From assembly GCA_943788295.1 (NCBI GenBank), contig CALSPS010000002.1, positions 187,352-251,351 of the forward strand: a DNA stretch of 64,000 nucleotides, given 5' to 3'. Each line of letters opens with the position of its first letter. Positions within the stretch are counted from its first letter, which is position 1. The notes beneath the pieces were generated by a model. That model was not told where the DNA came from and made no database searches. It saw only the letters and a program-made list of their open reading frames with translations. The stretch comes from Candidatus Poseidoniaceae archaeon. GTDB lineage: Archaea; Thermoplasmatota; Poseidoniia; Poseidoniales; Poseidoniaceae. Shown piece by piece: positions 47,498 through 53,829 of the stretch. Both the position numbers and the translations under genes were made by a program.

Positions 47498-47968
47498 TCA
47501 TTTTCGCCGATTCAAAGGCGGCCAGTTACGAAATCCCTTTGTGGACTCACGGTCAGCAAAGACGTGGATTCGAATGGCCTCGCCATCAATCACGATCGCA
47601 TCTTCGGCAGTGAGGCCTGGGCACTCTTCTTTGACTTCCTTCCATGACCGCTCGGTCGCCAAATTCTCGGACCACCATGGGAAGGCTGCACATTGTTGAG
47701 GGCGCACTTCGTAAATTGAGCAACGCTTTTCACCGTCAAGAAAAATGCACACATCATCGCTCGGTCGGCTTTGGAGGACATAGCGGCCATCCAGTGTTTT
47801 ACGGCAATCCCTCTCGAGCCATGCCTCCACCTCCATTTCATGGTGCAAAGCGATGCGTTCAGCATCTCGAATGGAGAGGTAGACAATCCCTCCTGGCTGA
47901 TCACAGCACCTGCCACAATTCGTCTGGCAGGAAAAGGGCACTCCGCCCATCCACCATGCGGCTTTCAT
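47498..47968 (-). CDS. YkgJ-family (UPF0153) zinc/iron-sulfur-binding protein
   Basis: CQTNCGRCCDQ is a CxxCGxCC motif, with a downstream Cys (CIFLDGEKRCSIYEVRPQQC). It overlaps the upstream gene by 4 nt. Confidence 0.55.
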   Translation of the reverse strand: MKAAWWMGGVPFSCQTNCGRCCDQPGGIVYLSIRDAERIALHHEMEVEAWLERDCRKTLDGRYVLQSRPSDDVCIFLDGEKRCSIYEVRPQQCAAFPWWSENLATERSWKEVKEECPGLTAEDAIVIDGEAIRIHVFADRESTKGFRNWPPLNRRK

Positions 47969-50025
47969 TCCTCTTCACCTTGAGCGCTCGAGGGAACAGC
48001 GTGAAGAGTAGCCAGTTTGATTGTACGGTGTTGTTCTGGGGTGTCTTCAAGCAGGTCCATCATGTCAATGTTCGCTGCATCAACGTCCCATTCACCTTCC
48101 GGTACGAAACTGTCCAGATCAGCCACTGGGTCTGAACGAGGGGTGCTTTTCTTTCTTCGACCGATGGTTCGCTTTTTCTTCACTTCGTCTTCCGTAAACG
48201 GAGGCAGTGGTTCTCGATCTGGATCGATCTCGACAAGTTGCTCTTCCAAATGCCTCAAATCATCAGCAATCTGAATCAACTCCTCGATTGACGCACCTGA
48301 TGTTTGTTCTGCCAAGGCCATCATTTTGTTTTCAAGGTCTTCAAGTTGAATCGAACTTTGCGCAAAGGCTTGTTCAAACGAACCGATTTGTTGGTCGATG
48401 CTCTCATCTAAATCTGTTAAAATTTCGGCAGCGGTTCCATAGTCTTGCTCTTCAATCCGACCGGTTCGTGCCACAAGATGCTCTTCTCGTTCGTGGAGAT
48501 CAAGGACGGAGGGGACTTTCAAATCCAAATCACGAAGTGCCGTTTTCATGTACGCTTCATGCCGAGATTGAGCGTTTTTTGCCATGGCTTGTGTGTCGAA
48601 TTCGGGGGGCGTGTAATCGTCTTCGCCAATGATTGGAAGCGTGGTGTGGATGTCAATTCCACCGATAGTATCATCGCTGTAAACAACATCAATGGCCTCA
48701 GCAATCAAGGTCGTCGCAATATCAGAAACGCGTTCTCTTTGGACGCTTGGCGCCGGATGTTGAGAGCGCACAGGTTCGCCCATCAAGACAGCAGCCACAT
48801 CGTCGCCATCAAGCAAATCTTGACCAGAACTGATGGCCAATGCTACCAAATCCAAATTGGCTTTAGTGGACCGCCACCCTCCTCCTTGGTGCAGGACAAT
48901 GCTTGCGAGTTGTCCATCGTCAAGCATCAGGCTTCGCTTGAGTGCAAGTTGCCTCGCATAGAGCACCATGCTGGTTGGTTTTGGGGCTTGAATGCGAACT
49001 GCAGCAGCGTTCTTGACCAAATCCCACAGTCTTGAAGCTGGCCAACGCTCTGGCTCAATGGTTGTGCTTAGCACGACATGAACGCCCATGTTGAGGGCGT
49101 AGTCAACCATTGTACCCAGCAGGGAAGCTGCTGTTGGATGGTCGGCCATAAGATGAGCATCATCGATCGCTAAAAGACGAGCTTGGGCGATTGCTTCCTG
49201 CCATCCTGCCGGCAGTTGGTCCAAGTGTTGTATGTCAGCAGAACCGAGCAGAAACACATCACCCTCTTGACGCCGAAGTATGCCTTGAGCGATGGCATGA
49301 AGCAAGTGGGACCGGCCAGTTTCATTCGGGCCTACCACGAGCAACGGGTTGAGTGACATGCCGGGGGAATCAACAACGGCTTCTGCTGCTTGAGTGGCTC
49401 TGAGGTTCTCTTCAACGGTGAACCATTGCTTGAAACTCATCTGTGATTCGGGCCGCAGTTTGATTGGCCATGGTGCATCAACCGGAGCGAGGGTAGCGTG
49501 ATGGTAAGCCGTGTTCACCTCGGGTGTGGCAAGGGCGTTCGGGAGTTCGTGAATGGTTCTCCCTCGTTGATCATCGAGGACGCTTGACCAAACAGGACGA
49601 CCGTCCATTTCCATTCCAACAAAAAAATCATCCTCGTCAACCGGGGCCCTTTGTTCATCAAACCGTTCTGCTGTCCGTTGCCTCAGTGTACGAAGACGAG
49701 ATGCCACAATCGAGGCAAGTGAGTCATCATCCTCGTTGAGCTGGAGGGCTGGTTGGTGGACTTTACTCCCTTTGCCAAGAACCGCATCGGCGATGATGTC
49801 GTAGGTTGGGCGCTCGACAACACCAACACGTTGCAACAAAGAGCCACTGCGTGAATCGGGCACTGCTTGCTTACCAAGCAAGCGGTTTAATCGTGATTTA
49901 GGCCGCTTTTGTGGTGCTTCGCTTGGCACCTTTTCAGCAGGAAGTTTGGTTTGTGCTCCCACTTCAGCAAGTCCTTTCTTGGCTTGAGCAATGGCGAAGT
50001 TGAGGTCTTCATTTCGCGAACTCAT
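47965..50025 (-). CDS. DnaA-homologous AAA+ protein (Hda/DnaA domain III-like) with degenerate Walker A, long N-terminal region and acidic coiled-coil C-terminus; no DnaA domain IV
   Basis: Residues 200-370 align motif-by-motif to DnaA domain III. FTVEENLRATQAAEAVVDSPGMSLNPLLVVGPNETGRSHLLHAIAQ compares with F..F..G.SN..A.AAA.AV...PG..[21 protein letters not shown]. Walker B is LLAIDDAHL (LLIDDIQFL), sensor I HVVLSTT (IVLTSD), and box VIII-like RIQAPKPTSMVLYARQ. The Walker-A Lys is replaced by Arg (GPNETGRS, 49309..49332). Confidence 0.6.
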   Translation of the reverse strand: MSSRNEDLNFAIAQAKKGLAEVGAQTKLPAEKVPSEAPQKRPKSRLNRLLGKQAVPDSRSGSLLQRVGVVERPTYDIIADAVLGKGSKVHQPALQLNEDDDSLASIVASRLRTLRQRTAERFDEQRAPVDEDDFFVGMEMDGRPVWSSVLDDQRGRTIHELPNALATPEVNTAYHHATLAPVDAPWPIKLRPESQMSFKQWFTVEENLRATQAAEAVVDSPGMSLNPLLVVGPNETGRSHLLHAIAQGILRRQEGDVFLLGSADIQHLDQLPAGWQEAIAQARLLAIDDAHLMADHPTAASLLGTMVDYALNMGVHVVLSTTIEPERWPASRLWDLVKNAAAVRIQAPKPTSMVLYARQLALKRSLMLDDGQLASIVLHQGGGWRSTKANLDLVALAISSGQDLLDGDDVAAVLMGEPVRSQHPAPSVQRERVSDIATTLIAEAIDVVYSDDTIGGIDIHTTLPIIGEDDYTPPEFDTQAMAKNAQSRHEAYMKTALRDLDLKVPSVLDLHEREEHLVARTGRIEEQDYGTAAEILTDLDESIDQQIGSFEQAFAQSSIQLEDLENKMMALAEQTSGASIEELIQIADDLRHLEEQLVEIDPDREPLPPFTEDEVKKKRTIGRRKKSTPRSDPVADLDSFVPEGEWDVDAANIDMMDLLEDTPEQHRTIKLATLHAVPSSAQGEEE

Positions 50026-51965
50026 GCTCCACCCTCCCTTTCTTTCCGCAGTCGCTCAAGATCTTCAATCTCCCAAGAACTCAATGAATCTTCAATAGAC
50101 GGAGGAGCCTGTTCACTCGAGGCGATTTCTCTTGGCAACTGTTTTGGTTGTGCTTCTGCCTCAACCCCGGGTCGGGCAGAAAGAGGTGTTAGCGCTGTTG
50201 AAGCGTTTGTTGGTTGTTTATTCTTAATCGCCTCGATTGGACTGGGCTGACTCTTGATGGATGGAAGGCTATGCTGGCGAGTTGAGGCATGCTGTTGGGC
50301 TGCGTCGCGAAGCGATCGACCATTGAATTTCCTTGGCTGGAATGTTTTGTTCACTGCAGCTTCTTGCCGTGCTTCATAGGTTGCTAACTGATGGGACAGT
50401 GCAACGGATGCTCGATGTGAGGTGGGTGGCTTGAATTCGGGTGAAGATTCAGGGGCATGGGCCACAGCAGCCTGGGTTTGGAATTGCGAATGCTGAGCGG
50501 CAGGTGCGTTCTTCTTCTTCCTTCTTTGAATCCGTTGTGGGGTTCTTGGTCCGCTAGGTTTGGTCGGTTGTTTGGCGATGGGGGTTGGCTCGGGCATCGC
50601 TTGAGGCTCAGGAGTTTGCGCTTCCCTGACTTTGGATTCAACAGGAGTCTGTATTGATGTTGGAATCTGCTGATCGATTTGAACTTCAGCTGGTTGAGCC
50701 ACTTCGGCCACGGTCATTGGCTCATTTGGAGGGGAGGGCCTTGGTTGTTGATCTTCAGCCCATGCTTGGATTTGTCCCTCTAATGCTGCAGTGGCTTGTT
50801 GACGTTCCTCGCTTGTCAACGGTTCTTCACCACCGATCATTGTCATCTCGCCTGCCTCTGAAGTTTGGACAGGTGAATGCTCAATGGCACGTTTCAACTG
50901 CTGTTCGATCCATTGACGTTCATCATCTGTTGGAGGGGCACACAACGGATGGTCTAGAAGAAGTTCTGGATCAAGCAGCCATTGTTCAACATCGCTTTGT
51001 TGAATCATCGAAAAGCACCGCTCTAAGCGGTGACGGGGTTCAAGTTCAAAGGCGTTCAAATCTGCAGTGGTAAGGAGCACATGATCATCCATTCGAACAC
51101 CGTCGACTGCGTCTCGCAGAAAATCGATTGTCGGCCCGTCACCGTTCATTCCAGCAAGGTATTCCACGCCTTCAAGAACGACCACAGCGCGCATGTTTTC
51201 CCATAAAAAAGCGTCAATTTTAGCCCTGACCTCTTGGAGTGTTGGTTGAATAGCCCGTGGATGGTTGCCTGTGCTGAGCCAATGGCATGCAGAAACTGGT
51301 AGGCCATGTTCGACGCTCAGCGAATCCACATCGTGTCGAGAGAGAACGAGCACGGGCCGCCCATGGTTCGCTAGGTGGCCTGCAAGGGTGAACACCTCAG
51401 ATGGGTCCAATGCATCGAGCATCAAAGCATCACCAGGATGGATCATTTTCTCGCTGCCTTGGTGCCGCCCCATGTAGGCTTGACTTCGTTGTTTGATCGC
51501 TTCGGGCGCATCCACAGTGACCTCGAGTTCAGGCAACCGTTCTTCGCGCCGCCAGCTGCCTTTTCGCAGGGTGACGTTTGACCACCACCGTTCGTCGACC
51601 AAGGGCTCGGCGGATGCCGCTTCCAAATGTAAAAAAGCGGTCGGATAAAGCGTTGAAACCCGTTGGGCTTCAGCAGCAGATAACTCGTGAACTGCGAGCA
51701 GAGTTTCCATTGGCATTGCATCATTTTCGATTTCCAGCAAAGCCTCGAGCCCAAACAGAAGAGCATCTGATTCGTGCATCGCCAACACGGGATGGCCTTC
51801 GATGAACAACACTTGGCCGATCCTTGGCATAGCATCCTTTGGTTTGCGTTCCGTTCGGATGTAGCCGGTCGTGGTGAGGCGTGCCATGTCCGAAGACAAA
51901 ATCCGCAAGGCATTGGGGTCGCCACGGCGTACTTCCGTGACATCTCCCTGCGGCAATTCGGTCAT
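50022..51965 (-). CDS. DUF835-like domain protein with long Pro/Gln/Ala-rich low-complexity C-terminal half
   Basis: The central region (aa ~180-315, nt 51020..51428) GRPVLVLSRHD...WLS...AIQPTLQEVRAKIDAFLWENMRAVVVLEGVEYLAGMNGDGPTIDFLRDAVDGVRMDDHVLLTTADLNAFE matches, from memory, the archaeal DUF835 pattern (LxxLxxIxxFxxxxxxxVVLLDGLEYLIxxNGFxxVLKFL). Assigned from memory only. It overlaps the downstream DnaA-like gene by 4 nt. Confidence 0.4.
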   Translation of the reverse strand: MTELPQGDVTEVRRGDPNALRILSSDMARLTTTGYIRTERKPKDAMPRIGQVLFIEGHPVLAMHESDALLFGLEALLEIENDAMPMETLLAVHELSAAEAQRVSTLYPTAFLHLEAASAEPLVDERWWSNVTLRKGSWRREERLPELEVTVDAPEAIKQRSQAYMGRHQGSEKMIHPGDALMLDALDPSEVFTLAGHLANHGRPVLVLSRHDVDSLSVEHGLPVSACHWLSTGNHPRAIQPTLQEVRAKIDAFLWENMRAVVVLEGVEYLAGMNGDGPTIDFLRDAVDGVRMDDHVLLTTADLNAFELEPRHRLERCFSMIQQSDVEQWLLDPELLLDHPLCAPPTDDERQWIEQQLKRAIEHSPVQTSEAGEMTMIGGEEPLTSEERQQATAALEGQIQAWAEDQQPRPSPPNEPMTVAEVAQPAEVQIDQQIPTSIQTPVESKVREAQTPEPQAMPEPTPIAKQPTKPSGPRTPQRIQRRKKKNAPAAQHSQFQTQAAVAHAPESSPEFKPPTSHRASVALSHQLATYEARQEAAVNKTFQPRKFNGRSLRDAAQQHASTRQHSLPSIKSQPSPIEAIKNKQPTNASTALTPLSARPGVEAEAQPKQLPREIASSEQAPPSIEDSLSSWEIEDLERLRKEREGGA

Positions 51966-52504: not shown

Positions 52505-53152
52505 ATGGAGGAAGTCAATCCCTTGCCAGCGGGCATGCGTAGATTCAACGAATTGGATCTTGCCCGTCCTTTTTTCCTCCGTTTTTGCGGTGCATCGAGT
52601 GCGATTGTGCTTGGCTTCTTTTTCTTGGCTTGGTTTGTGTTCTCCGCAACAAACTCACCGTTAGTGGCCTTGGTTTCGTTGCTTCCATCGCTACCGCTTG
52701 TGTGGTGGCTTTACCAGTCGACCAGTCTGCTTCACGTCCCCTTGGCAGTGGATTTGAATCATCCATTCATGAAGGGTGATCCGATGGGTAAATCAGTGGT
52801 GATGATTCAAATGGTCGATGGTTCATGGATTGATTTAGGCAATGGGCGGGTCCGCCTAGCAGAGGATGATTTGCTTGATGGATGCAATCTTGTGCGGGAC
52901 AACGATGATTACACTCATGTTGGGCATTTCAGTCGACACCCAATGACTCACAGAGGCATCAAAAAACAGGTTGTCATTCTGAATCAAGCCATGGCCCTCC
53001 GCGACGCAGTCAACGGTGAAGAGGATACCATCGAAGAGGCACGACGGCGTGAGCGCTTGGACACGGGCCTTTTGGATCGCTCTTGGATGGAAGAAGAAAC
53101 TGAAATTGAAATCGATCCTGATGGTATTATCAGCAAATTCCGTGGTGAGTAA
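52505..53152 (+). CDS. Hypothetical membrane protein
   Basis: Two N-terminal TM helices (SSAIVLGFFFLAWFVF, LVALVSLLPSLPLVWWL), then a soluble acidic C-terminal domain. Confidence 0.35.
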   Translation: MEEVNPLPAGMRRFNELDLARPFFLRFCGASSAIVLGFFFLAWFVFSATNSPLVALVSLLPSLPLVWWLYQSTSLLHVPLAVDLNHPFMKGDPMGKSVVMIQMVDGSWIDLGNGRVRLAEDDLLDGCNLVRDNDDYTHVGHFSRHPMTHRGIKKQVVILNQAMALRDAVNGEEDTIEEARRRERLDTGLLDRSWMEEETEIEIDPDGIISKFRGE

Positions 53153-53214: not shown

Positions 53215-53829
53215 GTGAATGCACCATCGAGATGGGGCCACCGGCTCGAGCAGTTGAGCGGTCCTGAGCAGGAAACTCTGCTTGGAACTTCTCTTTCCCG
53301 TCGCTTCACCATGTTGCCACTCTGGCTTTCACACCCCGCTAACATTGGCGCCTTTTACGGACTTTTGATTTCCTTCGCCCTGATTTTACCTTACAGGTTT
53401 GCAGGTGAAGACAACAGTTCATGGTTGCCGAATTGGGTGTTTCATGCATCGTTGTTGATCGTGGCATGCTTGCTGCTTGGTTTGGCATCACTCTTGCTGA
53501 TTCACTGGTCCAAGCGCTTTCCAGTGGCACCTCCACGTGTCGTTCTTTACCCCATGCCATTCGTTGGGTTGGCCCTCTTGACGCTCACTCGCACTGACAT
53601 CATCCAAGCCCCAACACTGCTTGTTTGGTGTTTGTTGTTGTTACCAGGCCCGATGTATGTCCACCTCTCATGGGCACCTCGTTGGCGTTTGTTGTGCATG
53701 CTCGAAGATGGAAAGGATCCTTTCATCGGCATGGAGTCGAAAGAACCTGAACCTCTAGAAGATGCAGCAACCCTTGCTGGGGACGATGAAGATTTACTTT
53801 CGGTCGTCGAAGAATACGCTGAGGAATGA
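53215..53829 (+). CDS. Hypothetical polytopic membrane protein
   Basis: About four TM helices and an acidic C-terminal tail. The likely start is MLPLWLS at 53311. Confidence 0.35.
   Translation: MNAPSRWGHRLEQLSGPEQETLLGTSLSRRFTMLPLWLSHPANIGAFYGLLISFALILPYRFAGEDNSSWLPNWVFHASLLIVACLLLGLASLLLIHWSKRFPVAPPRVVLYPMPFVGLALLTLTRTDIIQAPTLLVWCLLLLPGPMYVHLSWAPRWRLLCMLEDGKDPFIGMESKEPEPLEDAATLAGDDEDLLSVVEEYAEE

Follow-up and report, generated by a model that had tools for sequence, protein, structure and literature searches.

Replication in archaea is initiated by Orc1/Cdc6, which makes it unexpected that a DnaA-type AAA+ protein is kept, in syntenic position, across the sampled Poseidoniales, a group that ranks among the most abundant planktonic archaea. 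We describe this protein from a contig of a Candidatus Poseidoniaceae archaeon (CALSPS010000002.1, positions 187,352 to 251,351); the 64,000 nucleotides analyzed are referred to as the window. It is encoded on the reverse strand by a gene of 686 codons, and an arginine takes the place of the lysine in its Walker A motif (P-loop).

A direct precedent for this arginine is found in Hda. The Walker A motif of Hda comprises residues 50-57, of which Gly55, Arg56, and Ser57 coordinate the β-phosphate of ADP; Hda binds ADP specifically, and its arginine finger is Arg153 in box VII (PMC5397184). The sequence of Escherichia coli Hda, identical to PDB chain 5x06_E, reads WAREGAGRSHLLHAAC and contains the P-loop GAGRSHLLHA. 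S. amazonensis Hda (3bos) reads GPVKSGRTHLIHAAC, with the P-loop SGRTHLIHA. A preliminary description of the locus had assigned the pattern GxxGxGKT to both DnaA and Hda, which fails for Hda. An arginine P-loop is a known natural functional state in this superfamily, tied to ADP binding, and the lysine-to-arginine change alone is unsurprising given the Hda precedent. In other P-loop nucleoside triphosphatases (NTPases), such as RecA (K72R) and Rad51, this change typically leaves nucleotide binding in place and cripples hydrolysis. The preliminary description held that it often abolishes ATP binding, but classically binding is kept more often than lost. What is new is an apparently DnaA-derived protein with a distinct architecture in an archaeal order, the recurrent replacement of its Walker A lysine, and a conserved partner that resembles an inactivated KaiC.

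A DnaA-type AAA+ family of Poseidoniales

The product is a DnaA/Hda-type AAA+ protein of an archaeon, as had been proposed from the sequence. Residues 195-326 score 35.8 bits with the Pfam family Bac_DnaA (PF00308), whose gathering cut-off is 23, and all homologues carry this domain. A profile built from 29 family members and searched against PDB sequences matched only DnaA chains at E ≤ 0.01, the best being Bacillus subtilis DnaA (E = 3.8e-12); no Hda was among them. An AlphaFold2 (AF2) model was calculated from the family alignment; its confidence is high over residues 200-415 (pLDDT 82-92) and in a coiled coil formed by residues 527-600. Foldseek searches of the PDB matched it to domain III of DnaA (8bv3, TM-score 0.80; 2z4r, 0.78) and to Hda (5x06, 0.80; 3bos, 0.71), followed by clamp-loader and RuvB subunits.

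A search of 5.8 billion proteins returned 105 full-length relatives with identities of 39-100%, every one of them from a marine metagenome or a Poseidoniales metagenome-assembled genome (MAG). Every named relative belongs to a MAG of Poseidoniales (Marine Group II), and the next match beyond the family is a bacterial DnaA (E = 6e-9). A representative cluster of 210 member sequences is identical to the window protein. Among GTDB species representatives, 212 relatives were detected and 78 loci kept, all from Poseidoniales or 'Euryarchaeota' MAGs except for one contig binned as Verrucomicrobiales. An exhaustive hidden Markov model search that covered 1.84 billion representatives yielded 61 proteins with E ≤ 1e-30, including more divergent members with the same architecture.

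Two members of the family stand out. The Verrucomicrobiales-binned contig (L047, NZEQ01000009.1, 'Verrucomicrobiales bacterium isolate ARS100') encodes a protein nested in a Poseidonia clade with cysteine at the Walker A position, and is almost certainly a mis-binned archaeal contig. A metagenomic homologue of 792 residues (P0014) carries the P-loop segment GPSETGRS twice, at residues 227 and 342, which points either to a tandem duplication within the protein or to an artefact of assembly.

The gene is a Poseidoniales core gene that has been annotated by homology only. One member is labeled 'DnaA/Hda family protein [Poseidonia sp.]' at NCBI, and several are labeled 'chromosomal replication initiation ATPase DnaA' at JGI. 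No paper that connects DnaA with Poseidoniales or Marine Group II emerged from a literature search, in which the sole match was the software name 'Dnaapler'.

The JGI labels would fit a bona fide DnaA, acquired by Poseidoniales as a bacterial-type initiator, as would the best sequence and structure matches, which are to DnaA domain III. We nevertheless hold this to be very improbable. The protein reaches 42 bits against the NCBIfam DnaA model TIGR00362, whose cut-off is 343.9, and 40 bits against the Hda model TIGR03420, whose cut-off is 194.8. Neither DnaA_N (domain I) nor Bac_DnaA_C (domain IV) gave a Pfam match at E ≤ 1, and neither a clamp-binding motif (QL[SP]LPL) nor a PIP pattern occurs anywhere in the protein. 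Its C-terminal half consists of an acidic coiled coil and a disordered tail, and the catalytic lysine is dispensable across the family. Both a genuine DnaA and a genuine Hda were rejected on equivalog scores far under the cut-offs, the lack of domains I and IV, and the lack of a clamp motif. The best reading is that the family descends from the DnaA/Hda branch of AAA+ proteins, is specific to the order, and has a non-replicative role.

Variation at the Walker A lysine and its surroundings

The P-loop GPNETGRS lies exactly where it had been reported, with Arg238 encoded by CGG. It departs from the canonical Walker A pattern GxxxxGK[ST], but this does not rule out membership of the superfamily because Hda, an accepted member, also carries arginine. 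Two alignments place the arginine on the lysine position, in agreement with the preliminary description. The family consensus GesetGrshLlhai falls over the P-loop of B. subtilis DnaA with the arginine exactly on the Walker A lysine, and hhalign puts Arg238 of the family on Arg56 of E. coli Hda.

The other elements of the nucleotide-binding site that the preliminary description had listed as retained are present to different degrees. Walker B is intact as Asp288-Asp289, and in the profile alignment the family LLaiDD pairs with LLIDD of DnaA. The box VIII-like segment also stands, with Trp384-Arg385 aligned to the box VIII arginine of DnaA. Sensor I does so only in a loose sense: a conserved serine or threonine ends the strand, but the position aligned with the aspartate of Hda and DnaA is variable and is taken by Thr322 in the window protein. 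The box VII assignment, which makes Arg332 the candidate arginine finger, is based on the S-R-[LF] motif, and MAFFT alone pairs Arg332 with the first arginine of DnaA box VII.

From an alignment of 106 family sequences and an outgroup of four bacterial DnaA proteins (110 in total), we reconstructed residue changes by Fitch parsimony on neighbor-joining trees calculated without the P-loop columns, from the AAA+ module only and from full-length proteins; the exact number of events on such trees is approximate. Position 238 is lysine in 42 sequences (including the four of the outgroup), arginine in 33, cysteine in 27, threonine in five, isoleucine in two, and glycine in one, which corresponds to at least 12 changes. 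The root state is lysine on both trees. Four of the 12 changes are from lysine to arginine and two are reversals, one of which (L024) is nested among sequences that encode arginine with AGR codons. A further orthologue (P0040) has methionine at this position, and in the cysteine clade (Poseidonia sp.) the first P-loop glycine is also gone, so that the motif reads AGCS or SGCS.

The AAA+ module retains the shape of a nucleotide pocket, and its lid is intact. The phosphate-loop backbone and metal-binding residues are kept, whereas the Walker A lysine, the arginine finger, and sensor II are labile. Gly237 is present in all 110 sequences with no change, and position 239 is serine in 87 and threonine in 23 (at least eight changes). 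In Walker B, position 288 is aspartate in 105 sequences and glutamate in five (at least two to three changes), and position 289 is aspartate in 106 (at least three). Box VII Arg332 is found in 88 of the 110 sequences, with at least 14 changes, and sensor II Arg385 in 84, with at least 16-17. Arg332 is kept throughout the arginine clade, and some orthologous clades have serine, lysine, or proline at this finger position.

The sites also vary relative to each other. A clade comprising L034, L039, L043, and L050 keeps the Walker A lysine (GESQTGKS) but has serine in box VII (ASSLWDILR), and clades with arginine or cysteine at Walker A retain the box VII arginine. This hints that the Walker A and box VII sites were lost alternately, not together.

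An ancestral lysine with multiple independent losses looks robust. Because the arginine is derived within the family from a lysine root, it is convergent with that of Hda and not inherited, meaning that the same solution arose independently in a bacterial protein. The family thus amounts to a natural experiment in which the Walker A lysine was swapped repeatedly, four times for arginine and also for cysteine, threonine, isoleucine, glycine, and methionine, with the rest of the pocket and of the protein conserved.

Canonical GKS or GKT P-loops in some orthologous clades could be taken to mean that the arginine stems from artefact or decay, whether through a sequencing error, a mutation private to the strain, or the degeneration of a pseudogene. 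The preliminary description had regarded such orthologues as evidence of error or private mutation, which is not cleanly applicable here, as they represent the ancestral state. The replacement is clade-wide, although not shared by all orthologues: a G-R-[ST] P-loop occurs in ~95 of the 105 homologues, and the arginine is fixed over a large Poseidoniales clade and persists in orthologues down to ~44% identity. The 33 arginine loci encode it by CGT (10), CGC (11), CGA (2), CGG (3), AGA (4), and AGG (3), and the use of all six codons for an unchanged amino acid argues that it is maintained by selection. The reading frame is intact, conserved over its full length to the C-terminal GEEE, and under purifying selection, so the earlier view that this is not a decayed pseudogene holds; conservation within the protein is highest in the AAA+ base (mean majority identity 0.69). 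Artefact or decay can be given almost no weight: error, private mutation, and pseudogene are refuted by the 210-member identical cluster, the clade-wide arginine, its six codons, and the full-length conservation.

A working ATPase deserves more consideration. Arginine retains the positive charge of lysine and might substitute for it functionally in an ordinary ATP-hydrolyzing AAA+ protein; the Walker B aspartates, Ser/Thr239, the box VII arginine, and the sensor II arginine are all present in the arginine clade, and the pocket is under purifying selection. We regard this as unlikely, given that the change is generally known to cripple hydrolysis, as in RecA K72R and Rad51. The orthologues with cysteine, threonine, isoleucine, glycine, or methionine, and the clade without the first P-loop glycine, point to a protein in which catalysis is unneeded. 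Hda, whose P-loop is the same, has been described as binding ADP and not as an ATPase (PMC5397184). The orthologues can dispense with catalytic residues, yet fold and protein stay conserved.

Protein architecture and gene neighborhood

The positions of the gene, its motifs, and the two genes that overlap it are compiled in Table 1.

Table 1. Window coordinates of the DnaA/Hda-like gene, its sequence elements, and the overlapping genes
Feature	Position	Strand	Remarks
DnaA/Hda-like AAA+ gene	47965..50025	-	686 aa; reading frame intact (open reading frame list)
N-terminal extension, aa 1-194	49444..50025	-	Family-specific; not DnaA domain I; from alignment
AAA+ module (base and lid), aa 195-415	48781..49443	-	DnaA domain III / Hda type
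Walker A, G232-P-N-E-T-G-R238-S239	49309..49332	-	GPNETGRS; read from sequence
R238 codon	49312..49314	-	CGG; replaces canonical Lys of Walker A
Walker B, D288-D289 in LLAIDDAHL	49159..49164	-	Invariant in 29-sequence alignment
Box VII, S331-R332-L333 in PASRLW	49027..49035	-	Candidate arginine finger
Sensor II-like, W384-R385	48871..48876	-	Aligned with DnaA box VIII Arg
Acidic coiled coil, aa 527-600	48226..48447	-	AF2 helices 527-575 and 580-600, pLDDT ~80
C-terminal tetrapeptide GEEE	47968..47979	-	G683, E684, and E685 invariant in 29 aligned sequences
Upstream partner gene	50022..51965	-	647 aa; stop overlaps start of DnaA-like gene
Downstream CxxCxxCC gene	47498..47968	-	156 aa; putative Zn/Fe-chelating; PF03692, 47.5 bits

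Outside the AAA+ module, conservation is concentrated in islands. In the family alignment, the N-terminal extension shows SKLNRLLGK, LLQR.GV..RPT[FY]D, DGRPVW, and WP; AF2 confidence is low throughout this extension. A conserved segment, VYSD..IGGIDL…Y.PP, lies mid-protein. The coiled-coil region carries 18 aspartate and glutamate residues versus two lysine and arginine residues, and the disordered tail contains KKKRTIGRRKK as a basic patch, DMMDLL as an acidic-hydrophobic motif, and the terminal GEEE. The last glutamate, Glu686, is kept in at least 90% of the 29 aligned sequences (GEEK in P0025), and GEEE is found in most of 84 loci, including members at only ~28% identity. The tetrapeptide looks like a docking peptide. 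No transmembrane segment was found in the DnaA-like protein.

The gene directly upstream abuts or overlaps the DnaA-like gene in every relative for which the flank is available, and the overlap of start and stop codons recurs in several relatives down to ~25-30% identity. In relatives at 39-46% identity and in L088 this upstream gene is assigned to DUF835; in the most divergent cases Pfam makes no assignment. In the window, the partner protein contains a DUF835 domain with a KaiC/RecA fold and a sequence that lacks a P-loop; DUF835 is an inactivated KaiC domain (PMC5847659). At full length the partner is Poseidoniales-specific. It has an N-terminal alpha/beta domain (residues 8-106) and ~290 Pro/Gln-rich residues predicted to be disordered, with the sharply conserved islands GPR..QR.RRKK, LTP..ARPG, RE.A...Q, and W..ED.ERLR. 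PATAN (PatA_N) was considered for the N-terminal domain and not confirmed, as there was no Pfam match even at E ≤ 10. One partner orthologue has a weak DUF2226 match (E = 0.0065). We conclude that the DnaA-like gene is translationally coupled to the KaiC-like DUF835 gene, and that the operon pairs two former NTPases with compromised catalytic sites.

A second overlap, with the CxxCxxCC gene, involves the start of this gene and the stop of the DnaA-like gene. The CxxCxxCC gene is a conserved neighbor, but its link is weaker because it occurs on the opposite strand in L088.

The remaining neighbors are housekeeping genes for citrate synthase, GDPD, TatC, FolD, an aminotransferase, and a pseudouridine synthase. 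Gene order is the same in relatives at 39-46% identity and largely kept in three more divergent members, and no replication gene occurs in the conserved neighborhood. There is no sign of a recent horizontal transfer island, as the GC content is uniform over the window (0.48-0.54) and the locus is syntenic. A role in anti-phage defense was also rejected: PADLOC gave only a 33-residue local P-loop match (mad8, E = 2e-5) and nothing for the neighbors. Rfam and tRNA scans of the window returned two tRNAs only, neither relevant to the DnaA-like gene.

Two further genes of the window, at 52505..53152 (+, 215 residues) and 53215..53829 (+, 204 residues), have hydrophobic segments and no Pfam match and apparently encode membrane proteins. 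All Poseidoniales loci examined have similarly sized genes without Pfam matches at this place, oriented divergently from the DUF835/DnaA-like operon. The start of a DUF309 open reading frame lies only ~35 nt from the DUF835 start codon, and this proximity implies that some start codons may be mis-assigned.

Proposed function and comparison with known systems

The absence of DnaA_N and DnaA_C domains and of a clamp or PIP motif, the single syntenic housekeeping locus, and the uniform GC content argue that the protein is not an initiator. We consider it probably a non-replicative, DnaA-derived AAA+ switch or scaffold that does not depend on ATP hydrolysis. In the arginine clade, the backbone of the P-loop together with Arg238, Ser239, and the aspartates of Walker B would still allow the module to bind adenine nucleotide, much as Hda holds ADP, and its turnover of nucleotide would be very slow or absent. 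Binding without turnover is suggested by the analogy with Arg56 of Hda and by the classical lysine-to-arginine mutants. The protein would then serve as a stable conformational or assembly module loaded with ADP or ATP, not as a motor, and may be empty in some clades. That cysteine, threonine, isoleucine, glycine, and methionine are tolerated, and that one clade has lost the first P-loop glycine, points to a conserved job independent of ATP hydrolysis. The protein probably functions in assembly, through protein-protein contacts for which it offers the ASRL surface of box VII, the coiled coil, and the GEEE tail; its likely partner is the KaiC-like DUF835 protein, which lacks a P-loop and is co-translated with it. 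The ADP-locked scaffold of the preliminary description seems a reasonable idea by analogy with Hda. The family thus offers a testable case of an ATPase becoming a nucleotide-holding or nucleotide-free scaffold.

Several points weigh against the proposed switch or scaffold. Some P-loop proteins with arginine keep residual activity. Many clades keep the canonical lysine, and the ancestor, and perhaps the lysine-type orthologues, may be real ATPases, in which case the role of the arginine type might be modified relative to that of the lysine type and not the same. The lability of Arg332 and Arg385 (88 and 84 of 110) means that a general relaxation fits equally as well as an ADP-locked state. Synteny is high throughout Poseidoniales, so the neighborhood is weak evidence for a partnership with the DUF835 protein, for which only the stop/start overlap argues. 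The AF2 model, moreover, has low confidence outside residues 200-415 and 527-600.

The resemblance to Hda raises another explanation, namely a regulator acting in trans. Arg332 would stimulate ATP hydrolysis of an AAA+ protein of the initiator clade, most plausibly Orc1/Cdc6, and the arginine P-loop would hold ADP. The P-loop GRSHLLHA and the box VII ASRL are identical to those of E. coli Hda, Hda is among the best structural matches, and Arg332 is conserved in the whole arginine clade. Yet the family sequence is nearer to DnaA than to Hda, with only DnaA recovered in the PDB profile search at E ≤ 0.01 and the Hda model reaching 40 bits against 194.8. The ancestral residue is lysine and the arginine is convergent with that of Hda, a clamp-binding or PIP motif and a replication gene in the conserved neighborhood are lacking, and the finger position is serine, lysine, or proline in some orthologous clades. 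We therefore view a trans-acting regulator as quite unlikely. The same low probability applies to a combined scenario in which the two former NTPases form a Poseidoniales-defining module, a nucleotide-sensing, non-hydrolyzing switch of a core cell-cycle process, for which Hda-like inactivation of Orc1/Cdc6 is one candidate. If true, inactivation of Orc1/Cdc6 by an Hda-like arginine finger would be the first system in archaea resembling regulatory inactivation of DnaA (RIDA).

Compared with Hda, the window protein shares the octapeptide GRSHLLHA of the E. coli protein and an identical box VII ASRL (PASRLWDL in the window protein; DLASRLDWG around Arg153 of Hda). Both have a DnaA-type AAA+ base and lid without the DNA-binding domain IV, and a sensor II arginine, with TM-scores of 0.71-0.80. 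The two differ in that Hda has ~233 residues, in contrast to 686 with a 194-residue N-terminal extension, a coiled coil, and the GEEE tail; the window protein lacks the N-terminal clamp-binding motif, scores far under the TIGR03420 cut-off, and did not match Hda in the PDB profile search at E ≤ 0.01. To our knowledge, the Hda partners DnaA and the β clamp are bacterial proteins that are not expected in an archaeon.

Domain III of DnaA (8bv3, 2z4r, 1l8q) is the best match in sequence (E = 3.8e-12) and in fold (TM-score 0.80), and the same NPL ahead of strand 1, Walker B hhhhDD, and boxes VII and VIII follow in the same order. Unlike DnaA, the window protein has no domains I, II, and IV, its Walker A lysine is replaced, its strand 2 and Walker B are separated by ~6 fewer residues than those of B. 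subtilis DnaA, and its gene is not near replication genes.

Bacterial tandem DnaA-like ATPases (P0175, P0189) likewise carry DnaA-type AAA+ modules outside chromosome replication, but they have two canonical GKT modules each, are bacterial, and have other partners. Examples are ~650-residue proteins encoded within the operons at L090:2640-7962 and L092:3562-10577. The genes of such an operon run in the order PATAN (PatA_N) with tetratricopeptide repeats (TPR), TPR-Roadblock/LC7, Roadblock/LC7, Arf/MglA-like small GTPase, and tandem ATPase, and the operon of L092 lies inside a che cluster (CheA, CheC, CheR, CheD, CheB, CheW). DnaA-type modules thus seem to serve polarity or motility signaling as well. 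These ATPases of PATAN/Roadblock/MglA operons are not supported as the closest relatives, since they score 42-70 bits per domain compared with 66-77 for single-domain DnaA; their strong whole-protein E-values arise because two domains are summed.

A broader parallel is provided by degenerate AAA+ scaffold subunits, such as the clamp-loader subunits δ and δ′ and the non-catalytic subunits of the origin recognition complex (ORC). These belong to known hetero-oligomeric machines, whereas none has been identified for the window protein. In the likeness that we draw, the fold is kept, the catalytic residues are relaxed, and function is achieved through assembly.

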